Positions 495 to 39,105 of a stretch of DNA of 39,105 nucleotides are shown piece after piece (the first letter of the stretch is position 1; each line of letters starts with the position of its first letter). The notes below the pieces were generated by a model that ran no database searches, was not told the origin of the DNA, and worked only from the letters and a program-made list of their open reading frames with translations. Both the position numbers and the translations under genes were made by a program. This DNA is from a virus (lineage: Duplodnaviria > Caudoviricetes): IMG/VR virus record IMGVR_UViG_3300034197_000036, positions 1 through 39,105 of that record; one strand, given 5' to 3'.

Positions 495-678
495 TTGACG
501 TCAACGTGTTCTAACTCAGAAGATGAGGTGGGCGACGACCCGGAGCCACCGAGTCGCCGCCGGGAACAACCGAACTCCACGGACGGCTGTTCCAAAGGCT
601 TGCGGCCTCGTCCAGGATTATGGGCGAATCCGCCGCATCCTTCAAGCCTACGGTGGCGATTGTTTGAAGGACCCACCA
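495..678 (+). promoter_or_regulatory. Structured leader of the replication gene
   Basis: TTGACGTCAA palindrome at 495-504, then four successive stems; the last (638-647/662-671) pairs the GAAGGA SD. Confidence 0.4.
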
Positions 679-1554
679 ATGGCGTTGCCTGACCCATTAA
701 CTCCGCCCGAATGCGACCTCAGGGGCATGGAATACATGCCGCTGATGGTCCCTCGTCTCTGGCGCAGCCGCGGGTGGCTGCTGGCCAAACGGCAACCGGA
801 ACTCGGTTTCTATATGCTCAACCTCTGGGCTGCCTCGTTTTACGAGGTGCCGGCCGCCTCATTAGAAGACGATGATGTGCTGCTTTGCGAACTAGCCATG
901 TGCGACCCTGTCCGGTGGTCGGCTGTCCGTGATGTCGTCCTGCGTGGATGGGTCAGATGCGCAGACAAGAGGCTGTATCATCCGGTTGTTGCTGAGCGTG
1001 CGTTGGAGACATGGAAGGGTCGCAAGGGCTATCGCGACCGCCTCGCCATAGCACGCGCTGCCAGGAAGGCGAAATCGGCGGAAAAGGCCGATTCTGACTC
1101 TATGATAGAGGCTGTGATAGAGCCTGTGATAGGGCCTGTCATAGACCTTAAGGTACAAGGTATAAGCTGTAAGGTACAAGATAGTAAGAAAGAGAAGGAA
1201 GACTCTCCCCCCAAACCTCCCAAGCGGGAGGTTCGCGGGACGGACATGGACCCTGACTTTTGCAGGTTCTGGGATATCTATCCGAGGAAGGACGGCAAGG
1301 GGGCTGCGCGGGCGGCATGGAGGGCCGCGCTAAAGAAGGCCGACCCCGAGACCATTATTACCGGCTGCGTGGCTTACCAATTCAACCTGGACCGGAAATA
1401 CATCCCCCACCCCTCCACATGGCTCAACGGGGAGCGGTGGCTACAGGCGAAAGAGGATGACCACTTTGACCCCGTCCTGCGGGCTGCTGGGCTCATTCCA
1501 GAGGACTTTGCCCTTGACGGCGAAAACGCTCACGAATGGAAATTGCTCCAATGA
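679..1554 (+). CDS. DUF1376/YdaU-type phage replication initiator
   Basis: PLTPPECDLRG..MPL N-terminus, RLYHPVVAE, C-terminal FW..YPRK..K..A...W and HPSTWLN..RW; SD GAAGGA before ATG 679. Confidence 0.8.
   Translation: MALPDPLTPPECDLRGMEYMPLMVPRLWRSRGWLLAKRQPELGFYMLNLWAASFYEVPAASLEDDDVLLCELAMCDPVRWSAVRDVVLRGWVRCADKRLYHPVVAERALETWKGRKGYRDRLAIARAARKAKSAEKADSDSMIEAVIEPVIGPVIDLKVQGISCKVQDSKKEKEDSPPKPPKREVRGTDMDPDFCRFWDIYPRKDGKGAARAAWRAALKKADPETIITGCVAYQFNLDRKYIPHPSTWLNGERWLQAKEDDHFDPVLRAAGLIPEDFALDGENAHEWKLLQ
1099..1180 (+). repeat. Iteron-like repeats (putative replication origin) inside the initiator gene
   Basis: Four tandem 12-mers tctatgatagag/gctgtgatagag/cctgtgataggg/cctgtcatagac, then TAAGGTACAAG twice (1149-1159, 1170-1180), then an A-rich tract. 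Confidence 0.75.
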
Positions 1555-11437: not shown

Positions 11438-12001
11438 ATGGCTGATAATACGGCTGAGATCCGGGCTAAAGTAGAGGCTGCCGTTGATGCGGCGCTTCTC
11501 CAGGGCAAGGTCACGCGCAGCACCATCATAGCGGACTTTGCCGATAGCGGTGTTGGTCAGGCAACGCTCTACCGCTGGATCAATGCCAGGATGCGCGTGG
11601 TTGCTGCTGACGTGGTTATGCAGGGTCGACCGATAGTGACCAAGGTGGAGGCTTTGGCGGTGAGGGGCGACACTGCCCCTCGGCCTGCTGGCATCGACTT
11701 CCACCAGCGCCTGTTATCCAGCCTTGAACGTACTGACGTCCTGCGGGCTATGGCGTACACGGCCGACGGCAAGCCGAAGAATGTCAAACTGGCGCGCGAC
11801 ACAGACGAGGATGAGCGCAGGAAGCTGCACACGGCAGCCTCGATCCAGGAGAAGCTAGAGGCATCGGCTATGCACAAGATGTATGCTGCCTTCATTGATG
11901 AGATATTGAGCATCGTGATGGCGGAGTTGCCTGAAAGCCGGGACCGGATACTTAGCCGCATGGAGGAGGTCCGGGCCCGCTATGGTGCCGGGTTCTCGTG
12001 A
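11438..12001 (+). CDS. Probable terminase small subunit (N-terminal HTH)
   Basis: GVGQATLYRWI HTH; helical; overlaps the TerL start. Confidence 0.55.
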   Translation: MADNTAEIRAKVEAAVDAALLQGKVTRSTIIADFADSGVGQATLYRWINARMRVVAADVVMQGRPIVTKVEALAVRGDTAPRPAGIDFHQRLLSSLERTDVLRAMAYTADGKPKNVKLARDTDEDERRKLHTAASIQEKLEASAMHKMYAAFIDEILSIVMAELPESRDRILSRMEEVRARYGAGFS

Positions 12002-14043
12002 GCCAGGGGCTTGCCCCGTGGGACCTGCTGCGGGAGCGGCTTGACGCACATCTTGCCAAAGCCGGATACGCGCGGCCTGGTTCCATTCCTGCCGATATGA
12101 CATTTACCGCTTGGTGCGAAGACCTGGCAGCCAAGGGGTTGAAGGTCGACGGTTTCCCTTGGTCGTTGGACAACCGCCCGTCTCTCAGACCGCTCTATGA
12201 AGCGATACCGACCACGGTTGAAGAGGCGATGCGGCGCACTGTGGTCTTGATGAAAGGCGCCCAACTTGGCGCGACGCTGTGGGAAATGCTGGCGGACCTT
12301 TACCTCGCCATCAAGTTTGAACCGGCGGTCATCGGCATGTACCTGCCCGACCAGCAGACCGCGGCGGACAAGAGCCAGCGGCGGTTTCTCAGGATCATCC
12401 GCACCATCCCGGATGTCTATCGGCGCCTCATCACACGTACGGGCCCGGGCGATGAGGCTATCCGGGTTGGAGAGGGTAACGTCCTCACCAGGATCATGGG
12501 AGAGTCCAGCTTCCTGTTCCTGTGGACATCATCAAAGACAGGCACCGAAAGCCGTCCTGTTGACGTGCTGTCCCTGGATGAGGTCCAGGAGATGACGCTT
12601 GAACAGATCGACCGCACCAATGAGCGTATGAGCGCATCGCGGATCCGGTTCAGGCTTATGCTGTCCACGGCCAACGTACCGGACGCGGATATCTCTTTCT
12701 GGTTTCAGCAGGGGACACAGAATGAATGGTTCACGGAATGCCCGAGGTGCCGGGCGGAGACGGACCTATCCCAACGCTGGCCGGACTGTGTGGCTTACAA
12801 TGAGGGGCAGATTGATCACGCGCCCCAGAATGACTGGGTTTATGTCTGTCCTGAGTGCAACGGCTGGATTGAGGACACCCAGCGCGGCCGGTTTATAGAG
12901 AAGAACCCGAAAGCATCTATCGAGAGTTATCACCTCTCACAGATCACATCGCCCACGATAACCGCCAGAGATATGGCTGAAGCATGGAACCGTGCGGTCA
13001 CAGGCGACCAGCGCAAGACGTTCTATAACAGGAAGCTCGGCCGCCCCTACATCGACAGTGAGCAATTACCCGTCACCATGGCACACTGCCTCGCCTGCAT
13101 GGCTGAAGGCATGGCTATGGGCCTGACCTGGCAGAAGTCAGCCGATCGGACAGATGACGTCTACATGGGCGTCGACCAGATGGGTGGATACAACGCCGTC
13201 ATCGTCAAGAAGCGTCTCCCTGACGGGAGGCAGGCTGTCATTCATGTAGAGGCGATATTCCACCTGGACCCGTTTGACCGCTGCGCCGACCTCATGGATG
13301 ACTTCAACGTCAACCTGTGCGTTGTCGAGCAATTGCCGAACGTGAATGACGCAAGGAAGTTCGCCAACAAATTCCGTGGGCGCGTCTATCTGGCAGGCTA
13401 CGCCACAGATCCCAAGTCAGACATGATCACGTGGGGCGATGCCATCACCCCGTCCGATCGCAAGACAGCCGAAGAGGACAGAACGCGATACACTGTCGTC
13501 CTGCAGCAGTACAAGGCGATGCAGGCCAGCCTGTTCCGGATCAAAAACACGCACTGTCTGTTCCCCAATTCCGCAGACTTAGAACAGGACGTCATCGAAC
13601 GGGGTGAGCGCAAGCGCCTTCAGATTGTGCGCGACTGGGTATTCCTCCATTTCACAAAGACCGCCCTTGTGGTTGAACAGGATGAGGAAACCCGCACGCT
13701 AAAGCCAAAGGTCGTTAAAATCGGCCTAGATCCACACTTCTCGTTTGCCAACATGCTGTGCGATGTCGCCTGGGCAAGGAACCACGGGATGTCTAGCTTC
13801 ATCCTGCCCGAGTCCATCGCCAAGGGCGATCGCCCCAAGCCCGAGACCCCGATGGGGCAGCGCATAGACAAGGTGATGCCCGGATTGCCGAAGCACGTAC
13901 TAGACATGATGGACCAGGGCGAGCGTGAAGGGACTTGCGGACGTTGCGTCGAATTCGACAAGGGCCGGTGCACAATCAGGATGTTGAACGTCGCGGCCAA
14001 TGACGTAAGTTGCCCGCTATATGATCCATTACCAAGGCCATAG
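11998..14043 (+). CDS. terL: Terminase large subunit, GpA-like
   Basis: MKGAQLGAT Walker A, LSLDEV Walker B, LSTA, zinc ribbon CPRC/CPEC, MGVDQ nuclease motif, DPHF. Confidence 0.92.
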   Translation: MSQGLAPWDLLRERLDAHLAKAGYARPGSIPADMTFTAWCEDLAAKGLKVDGFPWSLDNRPSLRPLYEAIPTTVEEAMRRTVVLMKGAQLGATLWEMLADLYLAIKFEPAVIGMYLPDQQTAADKSQRRFLRIIRTIPDVYRRLITRTGPGDEAIRVGEGNVLTRIMGESSFLFLWTSSKTGTESRPVDVLSLDEVQEMTLEQIDRTNERMSASRIRFRLMLSTANVPDADISFWFQQGTQNEWFTECPRCRAETDLSQRWPDCVAYNEGQIDHAPQNDWVYVCPECNGWIEDTQRGRFIEKNPKASIESYHLSQITSPTITARDMAEAWNRAVTGDQRKTFYNRKLGRPYIDSEQLPVTMAHCLACMAEGMAMGLTWQKSADRTDDVYMGVDQMGGYNAVIVKKRLPDGRQAVIHVEAIFHLDPFDRCADLMDDFNVNLCVVEQLPNVNDARKFANKFRGRVYLAGYATDPKSDMITWGDAITPSDRKTAEEDRTRYTVVLQQYKAMQASLFRIKNTHCLFPNSADLEQDVIERGERKRLQIVRDWVFLHFTKTALVVEQDEETRTLKPKVVKIGLDPHFSFANMLCDVAWARNHGMSSFILPESIAKGDRPKPETPMGQRIDKVMPGLPKHVLDMMDQGEREGTCGRCVEFDKGRCTIRMLNVAANDVSCPLYDPLPRP

Positions 14044-19990: not shown

Positions 19991-21736
19991 ATGTCCGACG
20001 ATGCCCGCGATGTTGCCTTCAATCCTGACGCGCCGGCCTCAGAAAGGTTCGACGCGAACGCCGTTCTAGGCAAGGCGTATCGGCCCACGGCTGGCGGCCT
20101 AATCCCGCCCGAAACCCTCCGCCCCTTAATCGACATGATCAACCAGGGGCTGGATGACGCGGACCTGCTCAAGGCGGCGAACATCGTCAAATTCCCGGAC
20201 GCGCGCGGCGGCTACGGCCGGGCGCAGACGCACCGCAACGACAAAAGAGGCATGCAGTCCCTGTACGTGGATGACCTCCAGGTCTTTGCCCAGGGGGATT
20301 ATTTCGAGAAGCCAAGCCCCATAGGGTTTGAGGGGCTTCGCCACATGTGCGAGCAAACGCCGATCCTCGCCTCAGTCATCCAGACGCGCATCCGCCAGGT
20401 CAACCGCTTCTGCGGTATCAGCGAGGATGGCGGGCCCGGTTTCGAGATCAGGCACGTCGACCGCAAGCACATCCTCACCCCGGAGGAGACCACCGTCACC
20501 GGGCTCCTCGGGCAGTTTATGGCCAACTGTGGATGGGAGTTCAACGCCCGATCCCGCAAGCGCCTGCGCCGGGATCCGTTCTCGCAATTCATGGCCAAGA
20601 GCATGCGGGACTCACTGGCGATGGATGCCTGCCCGATCGAGACCGAATGGAAGCGGGACCGCAATCTTGGGTTCGATGGTTTTTACGCGGTCGATGGCGC
20701 TACGGTCAGACTGTGCATGGAAGATGGTTACCAGGGGGATGATGAGATCGTGGCGCTGCAGGTTGTGCATGGCCGCGTCGTCACGGGGTATTCCTGGGAT
20801 CACCTGATCTATGAGGTTCGCAATCCGCGGACTGACGTGCGGCTATCGGGCTATGGGTGCGCCGAACCTGAGTTGATGATCCGTGTGGTGACCGGCTTCC
20901 TGAACGCGATGAGTTATAATATCGCCGGGTTCGATCAGAACAGCATCCCAAAGGGAATGTTGCACATGAGCGGGGACTACAGCCAAGAGGACTTGGTTGC
21001 GTTCCGACGCTACTGGAACAGCATGGTCAGGGGCGTCAACAACGCCTGGGCGCTCCCGGTGATGATCTCCAAGGACCAGGAGTCCAAAGCCACCTTTGAG
21101 CGGTTCGGTGTTGAATTCAATGAGATGTATTTCTCAAAATGGATGACGTTCCTATCTAGCATTGTTTGTGCCATATACGGAATGGACCCGGCTGAGATAA
21201 ACTTTGAGAGTTTCGCAGCAAATAAGTCCAGCCTGTCGGGCAATGATACCGGTGAGAAATTAGCGGCAGCACAGGACAAGGGCCTGCGGCCGTTCATGAG
21301 CTTCTTTGAGAACATTCTAACCGACTTCATCGTGAAGGAGTTTGCAGAGAAATACTGCTTCCGCTGGGTCGGAATGGATGAGGAAGACGAAGAAAAGGCG
21401 TGGGAAGCGCAGAAGTTGACCCTGACCCTTAATGAGCTTCGCGCGGAGAAGGGTTACGAGCCGTACCCTGTTGAGGATGATGGGCTGGACCTAGGTGGCG
21501 CACCGCTCAACCCTGCCTTGGTCGGCGCCTGGCAGATGTCCAATCAGCCTCAACCCGGTGAGGAATTCGGTGGCGAGGCTGGCGAGCAAGAGGACTTCGG
21601 GCAGGTTCCTGACGATGGCGGCGGGGACAGTCCCGGTGGGATGCCGCCTGATGCGGGTCCACCATCTGGTGGAGACTTCGGCGCGAGCAAGCAGCCTGAG
21701 CCGGCGATGGCCAAGGCGTTCATTATAGGAGCCTGA
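19991..21736 (+). CDS. Portal protein
   Basis: F.QNSIPKGML, CAIYGMDPAEI, GLRPFM.F.E, LTLNELRA..GYEP motifs. Confidence 0.9.
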   Translation: MSDDARDVAFNPDAPASERFDANAVLGKAYRPTAGGLIPPETLRPLIDMINQGLDDADLLKAANIVKFPDARGGYGRAQTHRNDKRGMQSLYVDDLQVFAQGDYFEKPSPIGFEGLRHMCEQTPILASVIQTRIRQVNRFCGISEDGGPGFEIRHVDRKHILTPEETTVTGLLGQFMANCGWEFNARSRKRLRRDPFSQFMAKSMRDSLAMDACPIETEWKRDRNLGFDGFYAVDGATVRLCMEDGYQGDDEIVALQVVHGRVVTGYSWDHLIYEVRNPRTDVRLSGYGCAEPELMIRVVTGFLNAMSYNIAGFDQNSIPKGMLHMSGDYSQEDLVAFRRYWNSMVRGVNNAWALPVMISKDQESKATFERFGVEFNEMYFSKWMTFLSSIVCAIYGMDPAEINFESFAANKSSLSGNDTGEKLAAAQDKGLRPFMSFFENILTDFIVKEFAEKYCFRWVGMDEEDEEKAWEAQKLTLTLNELRAEKGYEPYPVEDDGLDLGGAPLNPALVGAWQMSNQPQPGEEFGGEAGEQEDFGQVPDDGGGDSPGGMPPDAGPPSGGDFGASKQPEPAMAKAFIIGA

Positions 21737-27462: not shown

Positions 27463-28629
27463 ATGACGCTCCTGGTCGACCTCGGCCAGGTTCCGGCGGC
27501 GTGCTGCAATGACCATCTGGAAGACCTCGCTAAGGCGATAGCCGAAGGGCCGGGCGGCCATGACATCTGGGCGCCGTTGGAGAATCGGTTCGCCCGCTAT
27601 GTCTGTGAGCAATTCACGGCCCGTTTTTCTGCAATCCTCGGGGCGATGGAGGCGGCGCTTCGGCAGTTCATAGCTGGTGACACCTCCGGTCTGCAGAAGG
27701 CTGAAGTCCCCTGGTTGCGGTGGGACGAGGCGCGGTTTCAAGAGGTGCGGATGTACCTGGAGACGCGCGATCCCGCGGCCATGTCCATGGATGATTGGTC
27801 GCTTTTACTGGAATACCTCATCAACCGCTATCTTCCTCCGGGCGTGATTGAGCGGGAGGCCGACTTCCTTGCCGTGCGGGCTGTTTTGATGGGGAAGATC
27901 CAAGCGAACTTGGAGACAGACCACCGGCTCACGGACCCGATGTTGGAGACGTTGACCGCGCTCCTACCCACACGATTTGCCCACGTCCCGTTGCGCGTGC
28001 TGTCTCCTATTGAGATCGCCATATTGGAATACGGGCGGGCCCACGCTGCTGAGAACATCCGATCAGTCACGGAAAGCGCACGCCATCGCATGGCCACCAT
28101 CGTTCTGGAGCACACGCAAGCCGGGATCCTCGGACAACCCGGCGGCGGGTGGCAGTATGCCGAGACACGCTTGTTCGATGCGTATGGTGCGCTCAACCGG
28201 GACATGCGGCGCATCGCAGTCACGGAAAGCGGCGAGCTAACAAACCAGGGCTACATCGTCGCCTCTGGGACGGGAAAGCGCGTCAAGAGGGTGGAAGCCT
28301 ACCGGGGGGCCTGTGACTTCTGCGCGTCTATCAATGGAAAGATATTCACCATCGTCCCGGCGGATGCTCCTAACAAAGACGGAGCAACACAGATATGGCC
28401 CGGCAAGACCAACATCGGCCGGTCAGCATCACCCATGAAGCGGGTTGGAACCGCGCTGGTCGAGCGTGAGCCCCACGAGCTTTGGTGGCCCGCGTCCGGC
28501 GTGCAGCACCCCAACTGCAGAGGTGCGTGGATGCCAGTGACAGACCGGCCGCCCGCTGTCAGCCGGGAGTTCTTCGACCTCACACAGGACCTGCTGGATA
28601 GAGCAACGAAGGTGCGCCCGGCGGCCTAA
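27463..28629 (+). CDS. Head morphogenesis protein (MuF/SPP1 gp7-like)
   Basis: RRIAVTE, ACDFC and HPNCRG motifs. Confidence 0.85.
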   Translation: MTLLVDLGQVPAACCNDHLEDLAKAIAEGPGGHDIWAPLENRFARYVCEQFTARFSAILGAMEAALRQFIAGDTSGLQKAEVPWLRWDEARFQEVRMYLETRDPAAMSMDDWSLLLEYLINRYLPPGVIEREADFLAVRAVLMGKIQANLETDHRLTDPMLETLTALLPTRFAHVPLRVLSPIEIAILEYGRAHAAENIRSVTESARHRMATIVLEHTQAGILGQPGGGWQYAETRLFDAYGALNRDMRRIAVTESGELTNQGYIVASGTGKRVKRVEAYRGACDFCASINGKIFTIVPADAPNKDGATQIWPGKTNIGRSASPMKRVGTALVEREPHELWWPASGVQHPNCRGAWMPVTDRPPAVSREFFDLTQDLLDRATKVRPAA

Positions 28630-28716
28630 GCCACCGGGCGCTTGCTCGCCAAACCTAGCGCCTCCTGACGTTGCGACGCCATTCCTCGCCCCGCCTGCCA
28701 TGCCAAGTCACGCCCA

Positions 28717-28914
28717 TCACGCGCCGCCGTGACGCTTCAGAACAGCCTCCGCTGTGGACTTCCGGATCTGCTGCACCAGGTCGTAGCTCGCGCCTTCCAC
28801 CCCGTCTGGCAGATCGGCGAACGCGCGCTGTAGCTCGTGGAGGAATTCGTCGTTCATCGCCGCAAGCTGGTCGGCCGAGAGGCCCCAGGTGTTGTCTGTG
28901 GTGAATTCGCTCAT
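28717..28914 (-). CDS. Hypothetical protein
   Basis: AAGGAGG SD. Confidence 0.6.
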   Translation of the reverse strand: MSEFTTDNTWGLSADQLAAMNDEFLHELQRAFADLPDGVEGASYDLVQQIRKSTAEAVLKRHGGA

Positions 28915-29032
28915 CGTTCTTCCTCCTTATTGGAAAGCCCGCGCCGCAGTTTCCTGCCCTCGCAGTAGCTATTGGACGCCATCACCCCGAGGGCGACAGC
29001 CAGGATAACCAGTGGGAACCAAAGAATATCCA

Positions 29033-29248
29033 TCATCGTTCCTCCTTGTTGGCAGGCTGACTTTGGATAGGCCACAAGATCCACCGTATTGCGCGTTCAA
29101 AAGGCATATCCGATACCGCGCAGAGGAACATTGCGATCGGCAGTTTTATCATCCACAGCATGGCGGCGTAGAGCATAAACTGCAAAGTGAGCGAAGCGGC
29201 GAACGCACAGACAAGAAACGCAACTTCAAAGTAGGGTTCCACGGCCAC
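29033..29248 (-). CDS. Small membrane protein
   Basis: Hydrophobic; GGAGG SD. Confidence 0.45.
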   Translation of the reverse strand: MAVEPYFEVAFLVCAFAASLTLQFMLYAAMLWMIKLPIAMFLCAVSDMPFERAIRWILWPIQSQPANKEER

Positions 29249-30585: not shown

Positions 30586-30918
30586 ATGCTCCTCCCGAAG
30601 CCTGAGCGCATCCGCGCGCCAAGGCACCTCAAATGGCTCAAGACGTTGCCATGCTCTGTCCCGCTGTGCCAGCGGACAGATGTCCAGGCCCATCACCTGA
30701 CATGCGCGCAACCGAAGGCGCGGGGACTGACGGCGGGAGACCAGTTCGCCGTACCGTTGTGTTTCGTCCACCACGATCCGAGGTCATCTGCCAGCGTCCA
30801 CTTCGCCGGGGCGGAGCGGGTATGGTGGGAACGCCATCGTGTGGACCCGATCGCGCTGGCGGAGCGCCTATGGGCGGAAAGCCCGTCGCTGTGGGCACAC
30901 AAAAAGACTGCCCGATGA
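30586..30918 (+). CDS. DUF968/HNH-like zinc-binding protein
   Basis: HL.W...LPC...C.....AHH......D..AVPLC..HH. Confidence 0.75.
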   Translation: MLLPKPERIRAPRHLKWLKTLPCSVPLCQRTDVQAHHLTCAQPKARGLTAGDQFAVPLCFVHHDPRSSASVHFAGAERVWWERHRVDPIALAERLWAESPSLWAHKKTAR

Positions 30919-31766
30919 TCCACTACCATGGCACGCCAATCACGCCGATGACCGCGCTCTATGAACTGCGGGGCAGAAATTTCTGCGTCTCGCACATGGC
31001 GCCGCGGGATGTGAAACGCTGCCACGATATCGGCCAGTCTGTGATGCTAGATAACGGTGCTTTCAGCAAATGGAAGTCGGGCAAGGCCACGGACTGGCCG
31101 GCATTCTATGCTTGGTGCGATCGCTGGCTTGATTACCCGACGACGTGGGCAATCCCGCCTGACGTGATCGACGCGCCATCGCAAGAGCAAGACGGACTGT
31201 TGAACGAGTGGCCGCACGGCAAGCGTATGAAAGTCCTCGTTTGTCTGAGTGGCGGCATCGATAGCGCCTTGGTGCTCGACATGATGCTGGAGCATGAGGT
31301 TGTAGCAGTCGGTTTTAACTACGGTCAGCCCCATGCGATTGAACTTCAATGCGCTCGGCGGGTGGCTGAAGTGGCCGGCGTGAAGTTTCACGAAATGAAA
31401 CTCAACCTGATTCCGCTGGTCGATGAAGTGGTGTTCGCCGGCCGTAACATGGTGCTTGCCGCACAGGCGATCTCCATTGCCGCTGCGGTTGGGTGCGATG
31501 CTGTGGCGTTCGGTTGTAACCAATCGGACTGGGGACGCTTCCCCGATTGCCGGCCGGCGTTCTGGAAGGGGATCAACGCGGCGGCAGGAGCCTATGGCGT
31601 GTCTGTGCTGCTGCCTCTGCTGCACATGACCAAGGCGCAAGTCGTTACTGAGGCCAAGGCCCGCGGCCTGGACATCGCCGGCACATGGTCCTGCTACAGC
31701 CCACAGGACGGGCGCCCGTGCGGCAAGTGCTTGGCGTGCGAGACGCGGACTGCGGCGGGCGCTTAA
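30915..31766 (+). CDS. queC: In-frame fusion: N-terminal half of a DpdA/TGT-like protein (30915-31226) + QueC (31227-31766)
   Basis: MIHYHGTPI..MLDNGAFS.W..PDVI; then LSGGIDS, YGQ.H..E, GRN, PDCRP.F, TKAQV, TWSCY, CGKCLAC. Confidence 0.85.
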   Translation: MIHYHGTPITPMTALYELRGRNFCVSHMAPRDVKRCHDIGQSVMLDNGAFSKWKSGKATDWPAFYAWCDRWLDYPTTWAIPPDVIDAPSQEQDGLLNEWPHGKRMKVLVCLSGGIDSALVLDMMLEHEVVAVGFNYGQPHAIELQCARRVAEVAGVKFHEMKLNLIPLVDEVVFAGRNMVLAAQAISIAAAVGCDAVAFGCNQSDWGRFPDCRPAFWKGINAAAGAYGVSVLLPLLHMTKAQVVTEAKARGLDIAGTWSCYSPQDGRPCGKCLACETRTAAGA

Positions 31767-31794
31767 CCTTATCTAACCAACAAGGAAACCGTAG

Positions 31795-32358
31795 ATGACT
31801 AATCCGATGCGCGCGGGACTTTTCTCTGCCTATCTTGCCTGCGTGCCGATGGCTAATTGGATGATAGGCCACGTGGGAATTGTCTGCATTCCGCAGGGGC
31901 CATGCCTAGTTCCCGTAGGCTTTGGCCTTATGGCGCCGTCAGGCGTTCTGGTGATTGGCGCCGCTCTCGTGCTTCGGGACATGGTGCAGCGCGCATGTGG
32001 CGTAGCATGGGCGCTGCTGGCGGTCGTGGTTGGATCTGCGCTGTCCTGGCTTGTGGCCGATCCGTTCATTGCGTTGGCATCCGCCGCGGCATTCCTGGTC
32101 TCTGAACTTGCTGACTGTGCAGTCTATACGCCGCTTCAGCGCCGTGGCTTGATATGGGCTGTGCTAGCATCCGGCTTCGTTGGCGCAGCGGTTGATAGTG
32201 TCGCGTTCCTATGGTTGGCGTTTGGGTCGCTTGATTTCCTCGCAGGGCAGATTGTCGGCAAAGTCTGGGCGGTTCTGGTTGCCGTGACGGTGATCTCCGC
32301 AGCGCGTCGTATTCAGTCTGCCAGGTCTAAGCCTGCACTGCTGGGGAAATCACGATGA
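31795..32358 (+). CDS. yhhQ: VUT/YhhQ-family queuosine-precursor transporter
   Basis: G...IG.ALVLRD.VQ, ALAS.AAFLVSELAD..VY..L, S..VGA.VDS..FL.LAFG; multi-TM; adjacent to queC. Confidence 0.85.
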   Translation: MTNPMRAGLFSAYLACVPMANWMIGHVGIVCIPQGPCLVPVGFGLMAPSGVLVIGAALVLRDMVQRACGVAWALLAVVVGSALSWLVADPFIALASAAAFLVSELADCAVYTPLQRRGLIWAVLASGFVGAAVDSVAFLWLAFGSLDFLAGQIVGKVWAVLVAVTVISAARRIQSARSKPALLGKSR

Positions 32359-32657
32359 TAGAGTTTGTTGCTTCGGTATTAGGTAGCGCCTGTTGGATGG
32401 TGCTGGCCGTTGCTTTCATCATCATGTTTGGCGCGGACTGGCCGTTCGTCGGGGCCATGCTCTACGGTCTGATTATCCCGGCAGGCATGGTTGCAGGCTG
32501 GCTTGCTACCGAGGTTTGGGACTTACCCGGCTACTGCCTTCGCATAGTTCGCAGCCCAGTCCGCTGGCCTTGGCTTTCCCGGGCGCCACACTCGGATGTA
32601 GTAATCCCACGCCGCGTCCGCGTCACCGACCTGCGGCAGTGGCGCCGGGTCCGGTAG
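32355..32657 (+). CDS. Possible membrane protein overlapping the lysin 3' end
   Basis: ATGA coupling and two hydrophobic segments, but a 135-bp convergent overlap. Confidence 0.35.
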   Translation: MIEFVASVLGSACWMVLAVAFIIMFGADWPFVGAMLYGLIIPAGMVAGWLATEVWDLPGYCLRIVRSPVRWPWLSRAPHSDVVIPRRVRVTDLRQWRRVR

Positions 32658-32996
32658 CAGCAACAACCTGGCGCATCCCGCCGCGGCGATGTCATGGAAT
32701 TCGATCGCGTCGAACAGGCGCGCGGGGTCAATGGCGAGGTCCGTCAGCAGTATGCGGAGCCTGCGTTGTGTCGTCCCGTTGTTCTTTAGGAGCGTGAGCG
32801 TCGGCGCTTCAAACTGCCAGAACGAGCGGGCGGGCCCGCCTCCGGCCTGCCGTCTCCATCGAAGGTCACTCTCCTGCAGCGCGATTGCCGTTAGCAACAC
32901 GAGCGCCTTGTTGCCTGGATCTGGAAGTCGCGTGTCCCGTCCCAGCAGCGCCAGGGCTGGCTCAATCGCAAAAGCGGCAAGGTCGGCTGGGGTCAC
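32523..32996 (-). CDS. Lysozyme-like endolysin
   Basis: AIALQES....RQ..GGPARSFWQFE...ARLLL..DP.PLP...W.YY.R.WRPGKP. Confidence 0.75.
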   Translation of the reverse strand: MTPADLAAFAIEPALALLGRDTRLPDPGNKALVLLTAIALQESDLRWRRQAGGGPARSFWQFEAPTLTLLKNNGTTQRRLRILLTDLAIDPARLFDAIEFHDIAAAGCARLLLLPDPAPLPQVGDADAAWDYYIRVWRPGKPRPADWAANYAKAVAG

Positions 32997-34452
32997 TCCT
33001 TGGTTCCTTCCATCATTTGGATGCGCCGACCGATCCAGGCCATGACCGGAACCGCCATGCTATTGCCGAGGGCTCGGTACTTGTTCCCATCCGCGGCGGG
33101 CTTTCCGCGATAGGTGATGTCTAGGTAGTCGTCAGGAAATCCCTGAAGTCGGCAGCACTCCCGTGGGGTCAGGCGGCGGACTGCGGATGTAGACACATAC
33201 GTTTGCTGCTTCATGCCGGGTTCAGACGCCAACGCACCGGCCACATTCATCATCCGTACTTCGTCTCGCTGGTTCTGGGCGAAAGCCACGGCGCTCTGCG
33301 CATGTCCATCCGTTGTAAGCGTTGGAACCGCCTCCGTCTCCAGCGTCACCATTGCGGTATGCGCTGACTTCCGGCCCGCCGGGCGCCCCTTGTTCACATG
33401 CAGAAACGTCGCCACCAGCGGCGTCCCGCGTCCCGTCCCGTCCTCGCTGGCGTCGAACCCGTCGGCGCGGAGGGCAAGGCGCGCTTTGTAGTCCCGACCG
33501 CTATTCTGCGGCATGATAGAATACATCTCAGTGACGAATGTCTCGCTCTCAAAGTCCAGCCGCCCATGCGGGCCTCCATGGGCGTTGACCGCTGTTGCTA
33601 CGTCAATCGGTCCGGCGGTGTTGTTGCCGCCGGAGGCGACCGGGATATAGGTCTCCAGGTCGGCAGCGTGGGCGATAGGGTGGAGAACGACAGGTCGTTC
33701 AGCCGCGCCTCGCGCACCAGGGCCTTTTCCATAATTCGCGTCCAATCCGCAGATGACATCGCCGCCTAAATGCGTATCCAGGGGGAGCTGCATGGGGCGT
33801 GCAATCAGTCCTCCGTCGCAGTCGAAGTCGGTTCCGAGGCCGCCGCCCCCTCTAGTGCGCGCTGCAATTGTGGGGGCAAGGTCTTTCCCCTTTTGGCGGC
33901 TCGGCGCAGGATGCCCGCGCAGGCTTTCCGGCTCAAAAAGAACCGCTGCGGCACGTCTCCAGTCTCCAAGATATCCGACAACGAACACACGCTTCCGGCG
34001 CTGGGCCAGTCCGAAGTACTGAGCGTCAAGCACTCTGTAGGCGAACCCATACCCGAGTTCGCCCACCCCCCGAGGAAGGAACCAAAGTCCCGTCCGCCTC
34101 CTGACGACAGGACACCGGGGACGTTCTCCCAAACAATCCAGCGGGGGCGCAGTCGTTCAGCCAGCCGTAGATACTCAAGGGCGAGGTTGCCGCGCTCGTC
34201 TGCCAATCCTCCGCGCAGTCCTGCGACCGAGAAAGACTGGCAGGGGGTTCCACCCACAAGAATGTCAATTGGTTCATAGTCCCCATCCTTGATGGTGGTG
34301 AAGTCTCCATGACAAGGCACGCTTGGGTAATGATGCCGTAACACCGCCCTTGGGAAAGCATCAATCTCGGATAGGAATGCAGCGCGCCATCCAAGCGGGT
34401 GCCACGCTACTGAAGCCGCCTCTATGCCGCTGCACACGCTGCCGTAGATCAC
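32993..34452 (-). pseudogene. C5-cytosine DNA methyltransferase (alpha chain), frameshifted at a G6 tract (34066-34071)
   Basis: Motifs I (CSGIE), IV (GGTPCQSFS) and VI (ENV) lie in one frame; VIII (QRRKRVF) and X (RLTPREC.RLQGFP, GNS) lie in another; adding one base joins them. Confidence 0.85.
33805..34277 (-). pseudogene. Overlapping alternative-frame beta chain of the C5 MTase (M.EcoHK31I-beta-like), split by the same frameshift
   Basis: MNQLTFLW...PSSGG | WANSGM...CSLSDILE...FFLS.KAC.GILRRA..RGK.LP..L..AL. Confidence 0.7.
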
Positions 34453-34461
34453 CTCTCTCTC

Positions 34462-34875
34462 CTACTTCGTGGGCGGTATCAGCCAATGGTAGCAGATTCG
34501 CCCGCCCTGCTGGTCAACGCACCGTAGCGCCGGGGCTGTGAACATTCCGCCGGCAAACCCTATTCCTCCTATCGCCACAGCGGCCACAACGGACGCAAGA
34601 ATGTGCCACCTATTCAGCAGGGCATACTGGCGGAGCAGGAGCGCGCCCATCTGGCGGACAGCGCCAGCCTGCATCTGCTTTAGCTGCGCCTCCGTGATTG
34701 GGTACAGGGTTCCACGTAGCGCCTCTGCCACCTCTGCCATTGCGTCGACCACGGCGACCTGTGCCTCAATGACAGGGACAAGCGGGTCGCCCTGTGCGGT
34801 TGACGCTTTCAAGGCCATTGCCAACTTGGCACGGGCTGCGCCTATCTCCGTGACGGCGCGGTCTACGGCAGCCAT
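34462..34875 (-). CDS. StbC/TraM/MobE-like membrane-anchored protein
   Basis: Third gene of the oriT-adjacent operon; C-terminal TM; assignment is positional. Confidence 0.5.
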   Translation of the reverse strand: MAAVDRAVTEIGAARAKLAMALKASTAQGDPLVPVIEAQVAVVDAMAEVAEALRGTLYPITEAQLKQMQAGAVRQMGALLLRQYALLNRWHILASVVAAVAIGGIGFAGGMFTAPALRCVDQQGGRICYHWLIPPTK

Positions 34876-35723
34876 GACGCGATCGGCTTCAGGTTGGTTT
34901 CCATGTCCGCAAGCCAGCGGGTGACGCGGGACCGGTCGAATACGTCCATCGGTACAACCTTCACGCCGGCGGGCGCCGTCCCTGCCGCGGCCTGGGCGAA
35001 CGTCAATTGCCGAAGCTCTACACCCTGCGCTGGTAGCAACCGGGGGATGGTTAGCACGACTGCGCCGCGGTCTACGGCTCCTCGGAACACGCTATGCCGA
35101 CGGGTCGGCGCCCACACGACGTCCGCAAACACGGTCGGGTCCACCCGCCCCTCGTTCAGCAGTAGTGCCGTAGCGGGGGGCTGGAACCCTGCGTGTTCTA
35201 GTGTGTCCAGCGCCGACAGATCGGACGTCCGCGGGGACAGGACATAAATCGCCACGGGTTCCACGCCAGAGGACTGCAGCACAGTCACTAGGTCAGGGGT
35301 TGCGGCGACCAGTCGGCTAAGGGCTGTATCCCCTCCTCCGAGGTCAATGACGGCTGTCGCCTTCTGTGCCATCACATGGCCAATGAAGCGTTCAAGCCAG
35401 GACAGCACCGCGCCAGGGTCGAAGTTCGGCGGCTCGTAGACGCCGTCGAAGTAGTGCCCCAACTCCCTGTTCTCGGGGTCAATGGCAGCAAGGAGAACAT
35501 CGCTTCCGGTGGTCGCCGCTTGCTCCGCAAGGTAGCGGGCCAAGGTGGTCTTGCCCGTGTTCCCTGCCCCGATCAGGAACAGCAGTTTTGGCTTGTTGGA
35601 TAGGTCCATTGCCGTCGGCATATCGGCCGTGACGTTGGCGACAGTCGCGCGCCGACCTACGGGCACCTCGTCTGCCACGGGCAGGACGGACTCAAATAAG
35701 GGGACAACTTTCTCACGCGGCAT
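34863..35723 (-). CDS. StbB/TraL/MobD-like P-loop ATPase
   Basis: GAGNTGKT Walker A; VIDLGGG. Confidence 0.7.
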   Translation of the reverse strand: MPREKVVPLFESVLPVADEVPVGRRATVANVTADMPTAMDLSNKPKLLFLIGAGNTGKTTLARYLAEQAATTGSDVLLAAIDPENRELGHYFDGVYEPPNFDPGAVLSWLERFIGHVMAQKATAVIDLGGGDTALSRLVAATPDLVTVLQSSGVEPVAIYVLSPRTSDLSALDTLEHAGFQPPATALLLNEGRVDPTVFADVVWAPTRRHSVFRGAVDRGAVVLTIPRLLPAQGVELRQLTFAQAAAGTAPAGVKVVPMDVFDRSRVTRWLADMETNLKPIASWLP

Positions 35724-35970
35724 TGGCGTTTCCATCGAGTTTGGCGAGGGCTGTGCGGGCGATATATCCAGCAGCGTAGAAGCCCCCGCTACCGCCAACG
35801 GTCTTGTTAAGGTGGCTTATCTGACGCAACGCTTCCACAACTTCCGCATACGGCGACACTGCCAGCGCGGCTTCAAGTCCCTCCTTAAATTGGTACACAC
35901 AGTCCCCCGGCACACCTCCAACGCGCCTATCGAAGGCTTTCCACATCTCATCCGTCACTGTCATTCTCAC
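35713..35970 (-). CDS. Phage-like hypothetical protein inserted in the stb-like operon
   Basis: VTDEM..A, EALRQI...IARTAL patterns; coupled at both ends. Confidence 0.55.
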   Translation of the reverse strand: MRMTVTDEMWKAFDRRVGGVPGDCVYQFKEGLEAALAVSPYAEVVEALRQISHLNKTVGGSGGFYAAGYIARTALAKLDGNANAA

Positions 35971-36347
35971 GTCCTTATCTTCACTGGGGTATGGGTAAAC
36001 TCAGTAGGCACCTCATCCCTGGGTTCAGCGCGGGGGATCGGAGGGGCTGGCTGCGGCCTTGACCTGGCCGGCTGTGACTTTCGCTTGCGCGCGACGTCAG
36101 CCTCAAGCCTCGTCCACGACGAGCGGACAGCAGCAGGGGACGGTCTCTCACCGTCAGAGTTCAGCACACCACCGTCACCGAGGTATTTTGCCAAAGCCTT
36201 CCATTTTGGAGGCTCGCTCTTGAAGGCTTCGGCCAGCGCGTCATACCGCGCCTCAAGCCAACCATAAATGGGACTGCGATTGCGCGGGCCTCGGGTCACC
36301 GACCGCATGGCGGCCAAGGCTCCCGCAACGTCGGGCGGCTTGCTCAT
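35967..36347 (-). CDS. StbA/TraK/MobC-like DNA-binding protein
   Basis: First gene beside oriT; RSPIY.WL...W..LA..L...G....G..P....VR..W.R; Pro-rich tail. Confidence 0.55.
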   Translation of the reverse strand: MSKPPDVAGALAAMRSVTRGPRNRSPIYGWLEARYDALAEAFKSEPPKWKALAKYLGDGGVLNSDGERPSPAAVRSSWTRLEADVARKRKSQPARSRPQPAPPIPRAEPRDEVPTEFTHTPVKIRT

Positions 36348-36454
36348 TACCGGACACTATGCCGCTCGCCCTCGGGGTGTCAAGAGTTCCGTGGCCGGTT
36401 ACAATGCCGTTCGCGCACGGGTCTCTTGTGGTAGTCGTGAGCGCAAGGGCAGTT

Positions 36455-36482
36455 CAATAGACAATATGCCGGTAAACCGGCA
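36455..36482 (-). other. oriT: oriT (MOBF/R388-type); predicted nic between 36459 and 36458 on the minus strand
   Basis: Minus strand reads TGCCGG-TTTA-CCGGCA-TATTGTCT^ATTG; R388 (recalled) reads GCACC-GAAA-GGTGCG-TATTGTCT^ATAG. Confidence 0.85.
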
Positions 36483-36549
36483 GGAAGGAAGTTTCCTTGC
36501 GTCCGGGGTTTCTGTTGGCGTAGGGTTTATCCGTTTGATGGAGGGTTTC

Positions 36550-36777
36550 ATGTCGGACCGGGACAAGGTGATGAGCGACATTAGGCGTGGCCTTATGCCG
36601 CCGAGGATTTTCGTGGAAGTGACCAGGGAGATTATCGGCGGCGGCGGCCATATTTGGTGCCGCGGGGAAATCAGTCGAGAGGTCTGGCTGACAGCGCGTT
36701 ATCCCGGCGATATCGCTAGGGTAGCGATTGATACTGTGTTGGCGGAGGCGGATCAGTATGGCCGGGACAAGCCATGA
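36550..36777 (+). CDS. Hypothetical protein
   Basis: GGAGG SD. Confidence 0.55.
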   Translation: MSDRDKVMSDIRRGLMPPRIFVEVTREIIGGGGHIWCRGEISREVWLTARYPGDIARVAIDTVLAEADQYGRDKP

Positions 36778-37010
36778 GCGACCCTATTCTGACCATCCTG
36801 CGTCAGCAGAACGAGACCATCATCGCCGCGATATCGGGGCTGGCCGAGGTGGTGCAGCACCAGAACGAGATGCTGGAGGCGTTGGACGGGTGGCTTCGGG
36901 AGCCGTCGTCCGGAGACCTTGGTGAGACACTGAAGGCCATGACGCGCGCCATCAACGAGGTGGCGGTTAGCACAAGTCAGATTCTCGCCATTCTTGGTCG
37001 GCGGCCATGA
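36774..37010 (+). CDS. Helical protein, possible relaxosome accessory
   Basis: ATGA-coupled; lies between oriT and the relaxase. Confidence 0.55.
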   Translation: MSDPILTILRQQNETIIAAISGLAEVVQHQNEMLEALDGWLREPSSGDLGETLKAMTRAINEVAVSTSQILAILGRRP

Positions 37011-37336
37011 GTGGCAGGACCTGGGTGCCGGGTGGCTCCCACGCATTGGATCGCCTCAATGAGCGGTATGACATGACCGTCACAGTCGAAGAATGGCCGG
37101 AAGTGTGGGATTCTATCTTTAAGGCAATCAAGACTGGCCGCGCGCTCATGACCGGCCGCGAGGTGGGCGCCAAAGGGCACCAACTAGAGCGGTGGGCGCT
37201 AATGTTGAAAGGGGAGACCGTACGGGTGCTTTGGTGCCCGGACACTAGGGCGATTGTCACGGTGCTGCCGCGTTCGAGTAGGAACCGGCAAGGGCGGGCA
37301 AAGGGCTACAAAAAGCCGAAGGGGAGGCAGCCATGA
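37007..37336 (+). CDS. Possible RelE/DUF4258-like RNase-fold protein
   Basis: SHALDRLNERY...V.....T.AIVTVLP. Confidence 0.45.
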   Translation: MSGRTWVPGGSHALDRLNERYDMTVTVEEWPEVWDSIFKAIKTGRALMTGREVGAKGHQLERWALMLKGETVRVLWCPDTRAIVTVLPRSSRNRQGRAKGYKKPKGRQP

Positions 37337-37653
37337 TCAGTCACTGCGGCGATCAGATAATGCGTGTGGTGAGCGAGTTTGACGGGTGGGTAGTGTGTCG
37401 GTGGGTGAACGATGACAACACACTGGCCTTCGCCATGAGCTACCTTTTGGTCATTCCCGTGGCTGTGGTGGGCTGCATCTTCGGTATAGCGTTGGGGCTT
37501 GTGGTTGGCTTGTGCTGGAGTGTCTTTAATGAAGGACTTTTGTGGTGGGGCGTTTTTGATGCTTACGACCCGTTCAAGAGCATAAATGGATTTGCCAAGG
37601 CCGGCGGATTGGTGGGCTTAGTAGGGTCAGTTCTTGCGTTCTTCCTTTGCTGA
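37333..37653 (+). CDS. Chimeric protein: DUF2158-like stub + membrane domain
   Basis: First 30 aa are similar to the next gene; hydrophobic remainder. Confidence 0.5.
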   Translation: MISHCGDQIMRVVSEFDGWVVCRWVNDDNTLAFAMSYLLVIPVAVVGCIFGIALGLVVGLCWSVFNEGLLWWGVFDAYDPFKSINGFAKAGGLVGLVGSVLAFFLC

Positions 37654-37838
37654 TGATCACGTTCAAACCCGGCGCTGCCGTGGTCAGGCACAGCGGCGAT
37701 CAGCCAATGCGGGTGGTGAGCCAGACTGACGGGTTGGTGGTGTGTCAGTGGGTAGACCATGACAACGTACTGCGTACAGTGACGCATCCGGCGGACACCT
37801 TGTTGTTCATTTATGTGCCTGATGCTGACCTTCGCTAA
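37653..37838 (+). CDS. YodC/DUF2158-like small protein
   Basis: FKPG..V...SG..PM.V.......V.C.W......T.P...L. Confidence 0.6.
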   Translation: MITFKPGAAVVRHSGDQPMRVVSQTDGLVVCQWVDHDNVLRTVTHPADTLLFIYVPDADLR

Positions 37839-39105
37839 GATTGCCGGCGGCGCTCCGTCGCGCACCTCGGCCATGACGGCGCATCTGATGGCCAACACGC
37901 TTGACCCAGCGCAAGCCAAAGCAGCGGCCTACTATGGCCATGGCATGGGCAACGATGGCGGCGACAAACTCATGCGGGGAACCGCAGTCGCCATAGCTGA
38001 TGGGGATATCGGTTTCGATGAGGGGTTGAAGCTCCTGATGGAGCGGTGGGACCGGCGGAACCCGATGCCGACTGATGAGGAGTGGCAGCAGGACGCGGAT
38101 ACCCTGATGACGTGGGATCCGGTTGCGCGGACCTGGCAGTGGTCGGGGCCGGACGCTTATGAGAGGTGGGAGGAACGTCGCCTTGATGCGGAGCTAGAAC
38201 TAGGGGACCGGCTTGACGTGCTGGTCGAGCGCGCCGCCGCCGGTCTACTTGACGCGCCGCTTGCTGTGGTGCGGCAGGACGCACACCCGATGGCACTGCG
38301 GGGGTTAGGCATCAACTCAGACGGTATCCTGTCCATTGCGGAGATTGATGCTCTGTTGGCTGGCAGGCGGGCGGACGGGGAGGTGATTGAGGGGAAGAAG
38401 TACGCCAAGGAACAGAGGTTGCCCGTGAACCCAAAGACGGGCGAACAGAGGTGGTCAACGCCGATCGGTTCCTATGACTTCTGCCCCACGCCGGACAAGT
38501 CAGTGTCTGTGGCCTGGGCGTTCGCTCCGGACAACGAGCGGGCCATGATCTATCAGGCGCACATTGAGGCGGCGCGAGAGGCAGTAGCCTACATCGCGAC
38601 ACAGGTTGGACAGGCGCGGTTTGGCGACCACGATCGGGACTTTGAGCGCGGCCACATCGCGTGGCTGGAGTTCACCCACCACACGGCCCGACAGACGATG
38701 TTTGATGTGGTCGACGGTGAGGTTGTCCTGCGGGATTCCGGTGTGGCTGGCGACCCGGACCTTCACACGCATTTCCTAATCCCCAACGCTGTGTTCTGCG
38801 ATTCCGGCCGTGTTGGCTCACTCGATACCGCGTCAATCCGGGGATTTTTGTTCGAGGCGGATGCTTACTACCATGCCAGGTTGACCGCGAACCTGCGGGA
38901 GGCGGGGTTTGCCACACATCTGGATGATAAGACCGGAGCGGTCCGGATTACTGCAATCCCAGAGGATGTCAGAACCCTCTTTTCCAAGCGGACGCAGGCC
39001 GGCGAAATGCTCGCACGGCAGGAGACGAAAGCGAGGGGCGAATCATGGGATGATCTGACCACGGACCAGCGGGAAGCGCGGATGAAGGCCGCAGTCCAAA
39101 GCAGG
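37822..39105 (+). CDS. MOBF (TrwC/TraI-like) conjugative relaxase, 3'-partial
   Basis: Translated manually, 428 codons with no stop: MLTF start, AAYY (37930-35), YDFCPTPDKSVSVAW, FTHHTAR, GDPDLHTHFLIPN (HUH), FSKRT. Confidence 0.92.
   Translation, partial: MLTFAKIAGGAPSRTSAMTAHLMANTLDPAQAKAAAYYGHGMGNDGGDKLMRGTAVAIADGDIGFDEGLKLLMERWDRRNPMPTDEEWQQDADTLMTWDPVARTWQWSGPDAYERWEERRLDAELELGDRLDVLVERAAAGLLDAPLAVVRQDAHPMALRGLGINSDGILSIAEIDALLAGRRADGEVIEGKKYAKEQRLPVNPKTGEQRWSTPIGSYDFCPTPDKSVSVAWAFAPDNERAMIYQAHIEAAREAVAYIATQVGQARFGDHDRDFERGHIAWLEFTHHTARQTMFDVVDGEVVLRDSGVAGDPDLHTHFLIPNAVFCDSGRVGSLDTASIRGFLFEADAYYHARLTANLREAGFATHLDDKTGAVRITAIPEDVRTLFSKRTQAGEMLARQETKARGESWDDLTTDQREARMKAAVQSR

Follow-up and report, generated by a model that had tools for sequence, protein, structure and literature searches.

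A peat-metagenome fragment of 39,105 nt (hereafter the window) carries a MOBF relaxase gene, an oriT nick region and an stb-like operon on one contiguous stretch with genes for the terminase large subunit (TerL), a portal protein, a MuF-like protein and a lysin, as the first-pass annotation had proposed. From sequence comparison we favor, with moderate confidence, the reading that the window is part of a temperate myovirus of ~90-115 kb that would be maintained as a plasmid by Acetobacteraceae-like peat bacteria and be transferred both in virions and by conjugation. It probably belongs to a family of self-conjugative, dual-mobility phage-plasmids.

Phage genes and mobilization module of the window

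The 59 ORFs of the window were scanned for protein families. The plus strand encodes a DUF1376 phage replication initiator (523..1554; PF07120, E 5e-9; phrog_22470), a portal protein (19991..21736; PF04860, phrog_15361), a MuF-like minor head protein (27463..28629) and a TerL of 681 aa from the PHB04-like clade (11998..14043; phrog_675, E 2e-90), which matches that of Bordetella phage PHB04 at 52% and whose homologues mostly measure 640-710 aa. The MuF-like protein matches phrog_581 weakly (E 0.004) and the syntenic gene of relatives at 37-48%; TerL, portal and MuF are all full length. On the minus strand lie an endolysin/lysozyme-like gene (32523..32996; phrog_3108), at 43-45% to annotated lysozymes/endolysins and matched by 103 phage records, and a phage-type C5 DNA methylase (32993..34452; phrog_116, PF00145 on both ORFs). 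Three-frame translation places a frameshift in the methylase near 34070, where contigs of two runs show no difference. A TGT-like/QueC gene appears partial; with the frameshifted methylase, it could indicate early decay. Among the 59 ORFs, none for capsid, tail tube or sheath was detected, and the window has no T4CP, T4SS, plasmid Rep or tRNA gene. The earlier designation as a tailed phage thus holds for TerL and portal and otherwise derives from relatives, since capsid and tail genes are present in the relatives G008 and RHOApe and in the myovirus G017, which also has a DUF1376 family member.

The MOBF relaxase-helicase gene (37822..39105, plus strand) had indeed been missed by the ORF track. 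Its frame is open from 37813 to the contig end, with a likely start at 37822, and it encodes the N-terminal 428 of about 1085 aa before running off the contig. It matches TrwC (PF08751, E 6e-37) and NCBIfam MobF (NF041492, 138.6 bits against a cut-off of 100), and its catalytic motifs are intact: an alignment of 27 sequences shows no variation in the YY pair at 37930 or in the His motifs (FTHH, DLHTH). The last 199 aa of the window relaxase are identical in a protein from another assembly (P0036), which continues for a further 657 aa that include a helicase domain (AAA_30); the gene is thus cut by the contig end and not truncated. In the relaxase tree, the window falls within a clade of 23 of the 133 sequences (support 0.988). 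When the relaxase, P0036 or the StbB-like protein was used singly as query against IMG/VR, no match was obtained.

Comparison with the published R388 nick site (PMC4814116, Table 1) located the oriT nick region at 36457..36482 on the minus strand, where a 7-bp hairpin (36467-36482) is followed by a 10-nt core identical to that of R388. Its orientation relative to stb is as in R388, with stb on the 3' side; the predicted nick lies between 36459 and 36458, and the stb side would be transferred first. The 8-nt nick core occurs once in the window. Since a match to the 10-mer alone is expected by chance in 12-22% of cases, the oriT assignment is supported by its position, the hairpin and conservation of the core in 12 of 20 relatives, which agree with the earlier claim. 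Plasmid searches by blastn with the oriT region returned chance matches only; of the motif scans, one was empty and another recovered G017 only.

The divergent operon on the leading side consists of three genes with a ParA/MinD-type ATPase in second place, the arrangement given for stbABC/traKLM as far as PMC3098194 describes it. The protein in the StbA/TraK position (35967..36347, minus strand) is helical, presumably binds DNA, and is conserved by alignment in this plasmid family; its comparison to R388 StbA is not significant (hhalign E 0.078), and a fold search gave no match with a query model of pLDDT only 69. The StbB-like ParA/MinD-superfamily ATPase (34863..35723, minus strand) has CbiA/ParA matches below cut-off, a weak match to the R388 StbB profile (E 0.005), and 28-51% to homologues adjoining mobF. 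The third gene (34462..34875, minus strand), placed at the StbC/TraM position by gene order, shows no family match and no similarity to R388 StbC. The stb/traKLM likeness previously suggested stands for gene order, ATPase and position, and homology to StbA and StbC is putative. The described 9-bp gap to the methylase, followed by the endolysin, is exact, and the methylase is the first gene past the operon in the predicted leading region.

Small insertions interrupt this module. An 85-aa ORF (35713..35970, minus strand), without phage match, separates the stbA-like and stbB-like genes, which abut in 6/6 relatives where both are delimited. Downstream of oriT, a 75-aa ORF without family match (36550..36777, plus strand) precedes a gene (36774..37010, plus strand) that had been taken for a phage ORF; we rejected this assignment, as the gene is a MOB accessory gene conserved in plasmids and normally coupled to mobF, its homologue ending -4 to +10 nt from mobF in all 11 loci having it. 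In the window, three overlapping ORFs of about 810 bp (37007..37838, plus strand) are inserted between the two. They are missing from the same 11 loci, are skipped by a variant contig in run X1, and include a 99-nt internal duplication; they show a weak phrog_3261/DUF2158 match and an Atlas lead of 0.89 to mostly viral clusters, and a profile search with 37007-37336 gave 20 matches, none named. The interleaving noted at first pass is thus real as regards the insertions, although one of the ORFs is a plasmid gene and the phage origin of the others is weakly supported.

Assembly continuity was assessed in run X1, the likely source run, and run X2; run X3 (share 0.15) was left out of evidence. 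Depth is flat: in run X1, the main contigs between 19 and 39 kb stand at 7.5-10.4. A single contig (32336-36824, 4.5 kb, depth 9.4, 0 differences) bridges lysin to oriT, and run X2 covers 30/30 bins of 24-39 kb; no coverage break was seen. The path from MuF to lysin crosses contig breaks in run X1. The window has no GC step and no att-like repeat above 11-12 nt, and no repeat above 11 nt flanks the MOB region as an att or target-site duplication would. GC3 is 0.73 for the relaxase region and 0.71 for the head genes; in seven other loci the relaxase or T4SS genes have values of 0.77-0.95, GC3 being also host-dependent.

Relatives carrying terminase and relaxase together

The most complete case is IMGVR_UViG_3300036790_000408 (G017), a circular genome of 134,436 bp (terminal repeats) whose gene content was read directly. 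It carries TerL, portal, capsid, sheath, baseplate and tape measure genes together with virB1-6 and 8-11, virD4, a 1135-aa MobF, the same nick motif and stb; virB7 was not found. HNH and nucleotidyltransferase genes lie among its conjugation genes, which are interleaved with phage genes; a resolvase adjoins virB1, and there is no att-like repeat above 11-12 nt. Its head lineage is unrelated to that of the window, and its MOB module is of the same kind.

For other relatives, linkage was inferred where TerL and relaxase homologues agree in contig bp total and source. Such agreement was found at 88,085 and 85,725 bp (for contigs of at least 80 kb, 2 pairs observed against 0.004 expected, P about 1e-5), and further pairs at 115,328 and 106,193 bp. 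These four contigs of 86-115 kb, compared to 86-112 kb for the phage family, represent three lineages in which TerL (support 1.0 / 100) and relaxase both belong to the clades of the window. In these three lineages TerL is apparently retained with mobF, at 53-64% identity. With these contigs and G017, the linkage sought at first pass is present in related genomes. A 14,013-bp pair (P0016/P0214) was set aside, being on a short contig, within chance, and with its TerL outside the clade. Strict co-divergence of TerL and relaxase is not claimed, as large and six-taxon trees pair the lineages differently; inner TerL topology varies between trees (inner support 33-81).

The relaxase of the 88,085-bp contig, second closest overall and closest on a long contig, forms a three-member clade with that of the window (0.997), and this contig also appears to carry VirD4 (P0351, same bp total). 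The pairing method yielded 11 relaxase/VirD4 pairs against 0.1 expected, with source agreement in 10; the pair at 11,310 was rejected for differing sources. For the 85,725, 106,193 and 115,328 bp contigs, no VirD4 was present among the 120 matches listed of 652. Because the 88,085-bp contig appears to carry VirD4, the choice left earlier between a T4SS in trans and one outside the window leans to the latter, on the element itself, and we think it likely that the channel is encoded beyond base 39105.

TrwC is absent from 16/16 TerL relatives at greater distance, of which 4 have a completeness of at least 90%, and from the TerL contig in 4/4 cellular genomes. Among 401 genomes of one family, 57 have this relaxase type and 19 of the 57 also a portal, which in none of the 19 is on the relaxase contig except for one chromosome, 1.1 Mb apart; TerL was found in 0/237 genomes of a second family. 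A TerL-clade alignment scan (22 loci) returned no long close relative and three new ones at 57-58%, each <13 kb.

Comparison with known phages and plasmids

The module resembles R388 in its MOBF relaxase-helicase with YY and His motifs, in the hairpin with an identical nick core, and in the three-gene leading-side operon with its ATPase. It differs in that TrwC has only 27% over 203 aa to the window relaxase, StbA/StbC similarity is undetectable and StbB similarity weak, and the window module is embedded in phage genes. Between oriT and relaxase, BLASTP against TrwA and TrwB found no homologue. Thus, of the R388 layout stbABC-oriT-trwABC initially invoked, the nick site and stb position are retained, and trwAB and the StbA/StbC sequences are not. 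Likeness is also seen in MOBF/VirB plasmids from Acetobacteraceae and their relatives (Roseomonas p3-AD3, Lichenicola, Skermanella pTT6-1), where the same three genes, oriT, accessory gene and mobF follow each other in the same divergent order, with relaxases at 36-51% to that of the window and a related nick motif. Unlike the window, these plasmids are free of phage genes in the annotated regions read, and nothing is inserted between their accessory gene and mobF. The MOB module is derived from RepA_C/MOBF/VirB plasmids of Acetobacteraceae, and later gained small insertions.

On the phage side, RHOApe (NZ_OW485606.1), a 112 kb phage-plasmid of Rhodovastum atsumiense, represents the head family of the window in plasmid form, within an isolate of the Acetobacteraceae (TerL 48%, portal 60%, MuF 48%). 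It has capsid and tail sheath genes and a StbB-like operon (31%) near RepA (RepA_C), but no annotated relaxase or T4SS, no tblastn match to the window relaxase and no nick core. Among myoviruses, PHB04 and its 86-95 kb relatives share full-length TerL at 43-52% and differ by the lack of TrwC, for which 50,697 phage records gave no match. Phage and conjugation genes also share one replicon in E. coli fusions, namely p1002-1 and six phage-plasmids of about 175 kb, and in mobilizable plasmids derived from P1; these are one-off fusions of about double phage size or have shed phage genes, whereas in the window family linkage recurs in diverged lineages, at normal genome size and with interleaved genes.

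Life cycle, alternatives and significance

Relaxase nicking, attachment to the 5' end, unwinding and hand-over to a VirD4/VirB channel are standard MOBF biology. In a lysogen, the circle would be kept outside the chromosome; to judge from R388 and RHOApe, its segregation would be helped by the stb-like operon. After cutting at 36459/36458, the relaxase would remain on the 5' end and unwind the strand by its own helicase; the strand would then pass to the VirD4/VirB channel with the stb genes, the methylase gene and the lysin gene in the lead. If the lysogen is induced, this genome would be packaged through TerL and portal, with capsid and tail genes presumably encoded outside the window.

The main rival is that a phage-plasmid is becoming a plain conjugative plasmid, having gained MOB/T4SS genes while virion production is lost or fading. 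Relaxase gain usually accompanies phage-gene loss in the comparisons that PMC10879196 draws, and a relaxase or oriT is found in 30 of the 38 P1-derived plasmids discussed there and in only two P1-like phage-plasmids; the frameshifted methylase fits this course as well, and so does a window in which neither capsid nor tail genes were detected. We nevertheless regard it as rather unlikely, for TerL, portal and MuF are full length, TerL is apparently kept with mobF in three lineages besides that of the window, linked contigs match the phage family in size, and G017 retains a whole myovirus gene set beside its T4SS.

A recent cointegrate, with a prophage in a conjugative plasmid or a plasmid-phage fusion, would imply an unpackageable size or accidental linkage. 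Such fusions are known from p1002-1 and the six replicons of about 175 kb; moreover, the relatives of the module are ordinary plasmids, and the G017 resolvase is next to virB1. This origin is improbable given the insertions within the MOB operons, the linkage in several lineages, and the absence of att-like repeats in the window and G017 and of a GC step. The tyrosine integrase of G008 also adjoins tail/lysin genes and does not lie at the MOB block site between MuF and capsid.

Even less probable is that relaxase and oriT serve the phage cycle, through nick-primed rolling-circle replication or site-specific recombination, and not transfer. TrwC has recombinase/integrase activity according to PMC4176350, the window has no T4CP, and for three of the four linked contigs no VirD4 was present among the matches listed; but the fourth apparently has it, G017 has a VirB/D4 set, the conjugative-plasmid order stb-oriT-accessory-mobF is retained, and the phage has its own DUF1376 initiator. 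An assembly chimera of phage and co-occurring plasmid, suggested by breaks between contigs and by related variants of depth about 3-8, both seen in the likely source run, is hardly credible in view of the flat depth, the lysin-oriT contig, the second run and the independent linked contigs.

Returning to the dual-mobility phage-plasmid, we tentatively propose, at slightly below even chances, that at least two unrelated myovirus head lineages in peat/soil Alphaproteobacteria, those of G017 and the window, stably hold MOBF/VirB-D4 systems and keep both virion and mating transfer. Surveys set these two modes as alternatives. Of about 222 E. coli phage-plasmids, only 6 had conjugation elements, and PMC10123127 interprets those as cointegrates or artefacts. 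Stable dual lineages, if true, would form a lasting exception. A prophage could then reach receptor-less hosts with the donor not killed, phage/plasmid classifiers would mislabel such elements, and the trade-off between the two transfer modes would be testable within one genome. One genome would choose among lysis, plasmid maintenance and conjugation, with G017 as a complete example and the window family as a second.

Phage genes of the window

The window is the entire record: 39,105 bases of a virus genome fragment that also turns up in metagenome runs from peat. The parts described here, their order and their continuity are observed directly, and we consider it somewhat likely that they serve dual mobility, in virions and by conjugation. 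The head module is PHB04-like (TerL 52%; relatives of 86–95 kb), and no capsid, tail-tube or sheath genes were detected among the 59 window ORFs scanned. Decay of the phage into a plasmid is a reading to be set beside both this negative result and the relatives that appear to retain TerL together with a relaxase; we regard it as unlikely. The Acetobacteraceae member of the head family, the Rhodovastum atsumiense phage-plasmid RHOApe, is a plasmid of 112 kb that carries capsid and sheath genes, RepA_C and a StbB-like operon, and has neither relaxase nor nick core. RepA_C and the three-gene StbB-like operon lie at L071:3750-7999; RHOApe may use stb as a partition system.

Several other genes were recorded. 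A 1691-aa protein (2874-7949) with GH16 domain(s) and repeats of ~95 aa may be a fibre; G017, a second virus record, has similar repeats in a tail-region protein of 2769 aa. Between portal and MuF, the protein at 21893-24103 has weak ParB_N and RelA/SpoT-like matches, and its C-terminal domains differ among relatives. At 30915-32358, a short TGT-like domain fused to QueC is followed by a Vut_1 transporter, apparently a partial 7-deazaguanine cluster.

The mobilisation region

The MOBF relaxase proposed by the first-pass annotation was confirmed in the frame running from 37813 to the contig end (TrwC E 6e-37; MobF above cut-off), with YY and His motifs invariant in the alignment. Its last 199 residues are identical in a protein from another assembly, P0036, which extends a further 657 residues and includes a helicase domain; the gene is thus whole rather than truncated, and the contig merely ends. 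Named relatives share the module order and are plasmid-borne in Roseomonas, Lichenicola and Skermanella; many of the metagenome loci, too, belong to ordinary RepA_C/ParA/VirB plasmids.

The suggested oriT was also borne out at sequence level: a 7-bp hairpin (36467-36482) precedes, on the minus strand, 10 bases that match the R388 nick core exactly (as listed in Table 1 of PMC4814116), oriented relative to stb as in R388. By itself the 10-mer match is weak (chance probability 12-22%). Both the window and G017 have a single occurrence of the 8-nt core, and among the regions of 20 relatives, 12 show a short motif at the corresponding position: 8 have the core of the window and 4 a related one. 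The R388-like layout holds for this core and its orientation; neither trwA nor trwB, present in R388, was found in the window. The locus L021:1-8774 carries a relaxase of the window's clade, an identical nick core and two flanking small genes matching PHROGs, and is possibly another phage-borne copy.

The divergent operon (34462-36347, minus strand), annotated as stb/traKLM-like, encodes a ParA/MinD-type ATPase weakly similar to R388 StbB (E 0.005); homology to StbA and StbC could not be demonstrated. It ends, as noted earlier, 9 bp from a frameshifted phage methylase (32993-34452), which overlaps an endolysin homologue (32523-32996). The stb genes closest to the window's belong to locus L023, where a 777-aa ORF and a reverse transcriptase lie downstream of mobF (L023:7146-10234).

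Of the small ORFs taken to be phage-like, those at 35713-35970 and 37007-37838 are true insertions; the ORF at 36774-37010 is an accessory gene conserved in plasmids, and in all 11 loci where it was found it is coupled to mobF. One phrog_3261 match and an Atlas lead of 0.89 hint weakly at a phage origin of the insertions, and the two that were tested against phage records gave no matches. Inside the MOB insertion the start of a DUF2158-like gene is present twice, as 99-nt copies (81%) at 37327-37425 and 37674-37772. A recent cointegrate, set against the absence of both a GC step and any flanking repeat >11 nt that could mark an att or target-site duplication, appears improbable. Non-conjugative use of relaxase and oriT seems very improbable.

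Coverage across 32-38 kb is unbroken. In run X1, possibly the sample of origin, the main contigs covering positions 19 to 39 kb have depth 7.5-10.4, and a single 4,489-base contig covers lysin, methylase, stb and oriT with 0 differences; in run X2, 30/30 bins of 24-39 kb are covered. Continuity was judged from contigs, the interval from MuF (27463-28629) to lysin being without a bridging read. Contig breaks in X1 fall where there are variant contigs from at least one co-occurring relative, and one such contig skips 37007-37838. These variants occur within 20-38 kb, in both head and MOB regions, at depth ~3-8. A chimera is the least credible explanation, with very little probability. Some of the variant contigs skip small ORFs at 24083-25065, 28604-29070 and 36962-37881.

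Linkage among relatives

TrwC was found in 0/16 distant TerL relatives and was absent from TerL contigs of cellular genomes in 4/4 cases, and a portal lay near the relaxase in 0/57 relaxase-bearing genomes, indicating that the combination is rare. When 119 relaxase and 120 terminase matches were compared for equal contig size and same source, two coincidences were observed (88,085 and 85,725) versus 0.004 expected. Cluster members added 115,328 and 106,193, both variants of one cluster. At all four, TerL belongs to the window's TerL clade and the relaxase to its relaxase clade; the 88,085 relaxase and the window's fall in a three-member clade, and a VirD4 match also occurs at 88,085. Applied as a control to relaxase and VirD4, this comparison produced 11 coincidences versus 0.1 expected. 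Close relatives thus appear to carry both genes, co-location being deduced indirectly, from equal contig size and source. The trees do not settle the branching within the TerL clade, which puts module swapping or repeated gain on a par with co-descent.

A larger parallel and the proposed dual mobility

The G017 record is 134,436 bp long, bears terminal repeats and has 144 called ORFs, of which 116 were scanned with PHROGs and 56, including the relaxase, with Pfam. It carries TerL (of another family), portal, capsid, sheath, baseplate and tape measure genes along with virB1-6, virB8-11 and virD4 (virB2 below cut-off); virB7 was not found among the ORFs scanned. Its MobF (1135 aa, 63% over the best segment) is accompanied by a nick motif and stb-like operon. 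Phage and conjugation genes are interspersed with HNH, DUF1643 and nucleotidyltransferase genes, and the record shows no shift in GC along its length. The relaxase falls in a different subclade and so represents a separate acquisition. This circular 134-kb myovirus (L047-L053, positions 83,497-105,679), known from the assembled record alone, is the strongest candidate among readable records for a self-conjugative phage. A relaxase sister to G017's and a VirD4 81% identical are found on a contig of 123,001 bp. The G017 protein at L047:15096-16466 has a match to the TIGR-Tas endonuclease model NF052498 at 59 bits, below the cut-off of 100.

For the window, dual mobility would presuppose plasmid-state lysogeny, functional virions and a T4SS beyond the contig end. 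The relaxase would nick and covalently pilot the strand, with the stb side transferred first, as established for MOBF systems (parts of PMC3098194 and PMC4176350). Conjugation genes in phage-plasmids are described, in the portions of the sources used, as sporadic, as fusions or as accompanied by phage-gene loss (PMC7969092, PMC10879196, PMC12282955, PMC10123127, PMC13221032; likewise 10.1101/2025.11.07.687105, 10.1101/2025.08.29.673033, 10.1101/2025.03.14.643293, 10.64898/2025.12.20.690322). Passages of the last mention conjugative phage-plasmids, and similar cases may be contained in its Table 3 or in Figure S14 of PMC10123127. No stable conjugative phage family was found in the literature searched, most subscription journals being outside its scope. 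The phage/MOB linkage is real, with no obvious artefact, and lies within a recurring pattern; its function is predicted, and the window is a putative phage-plasmid.
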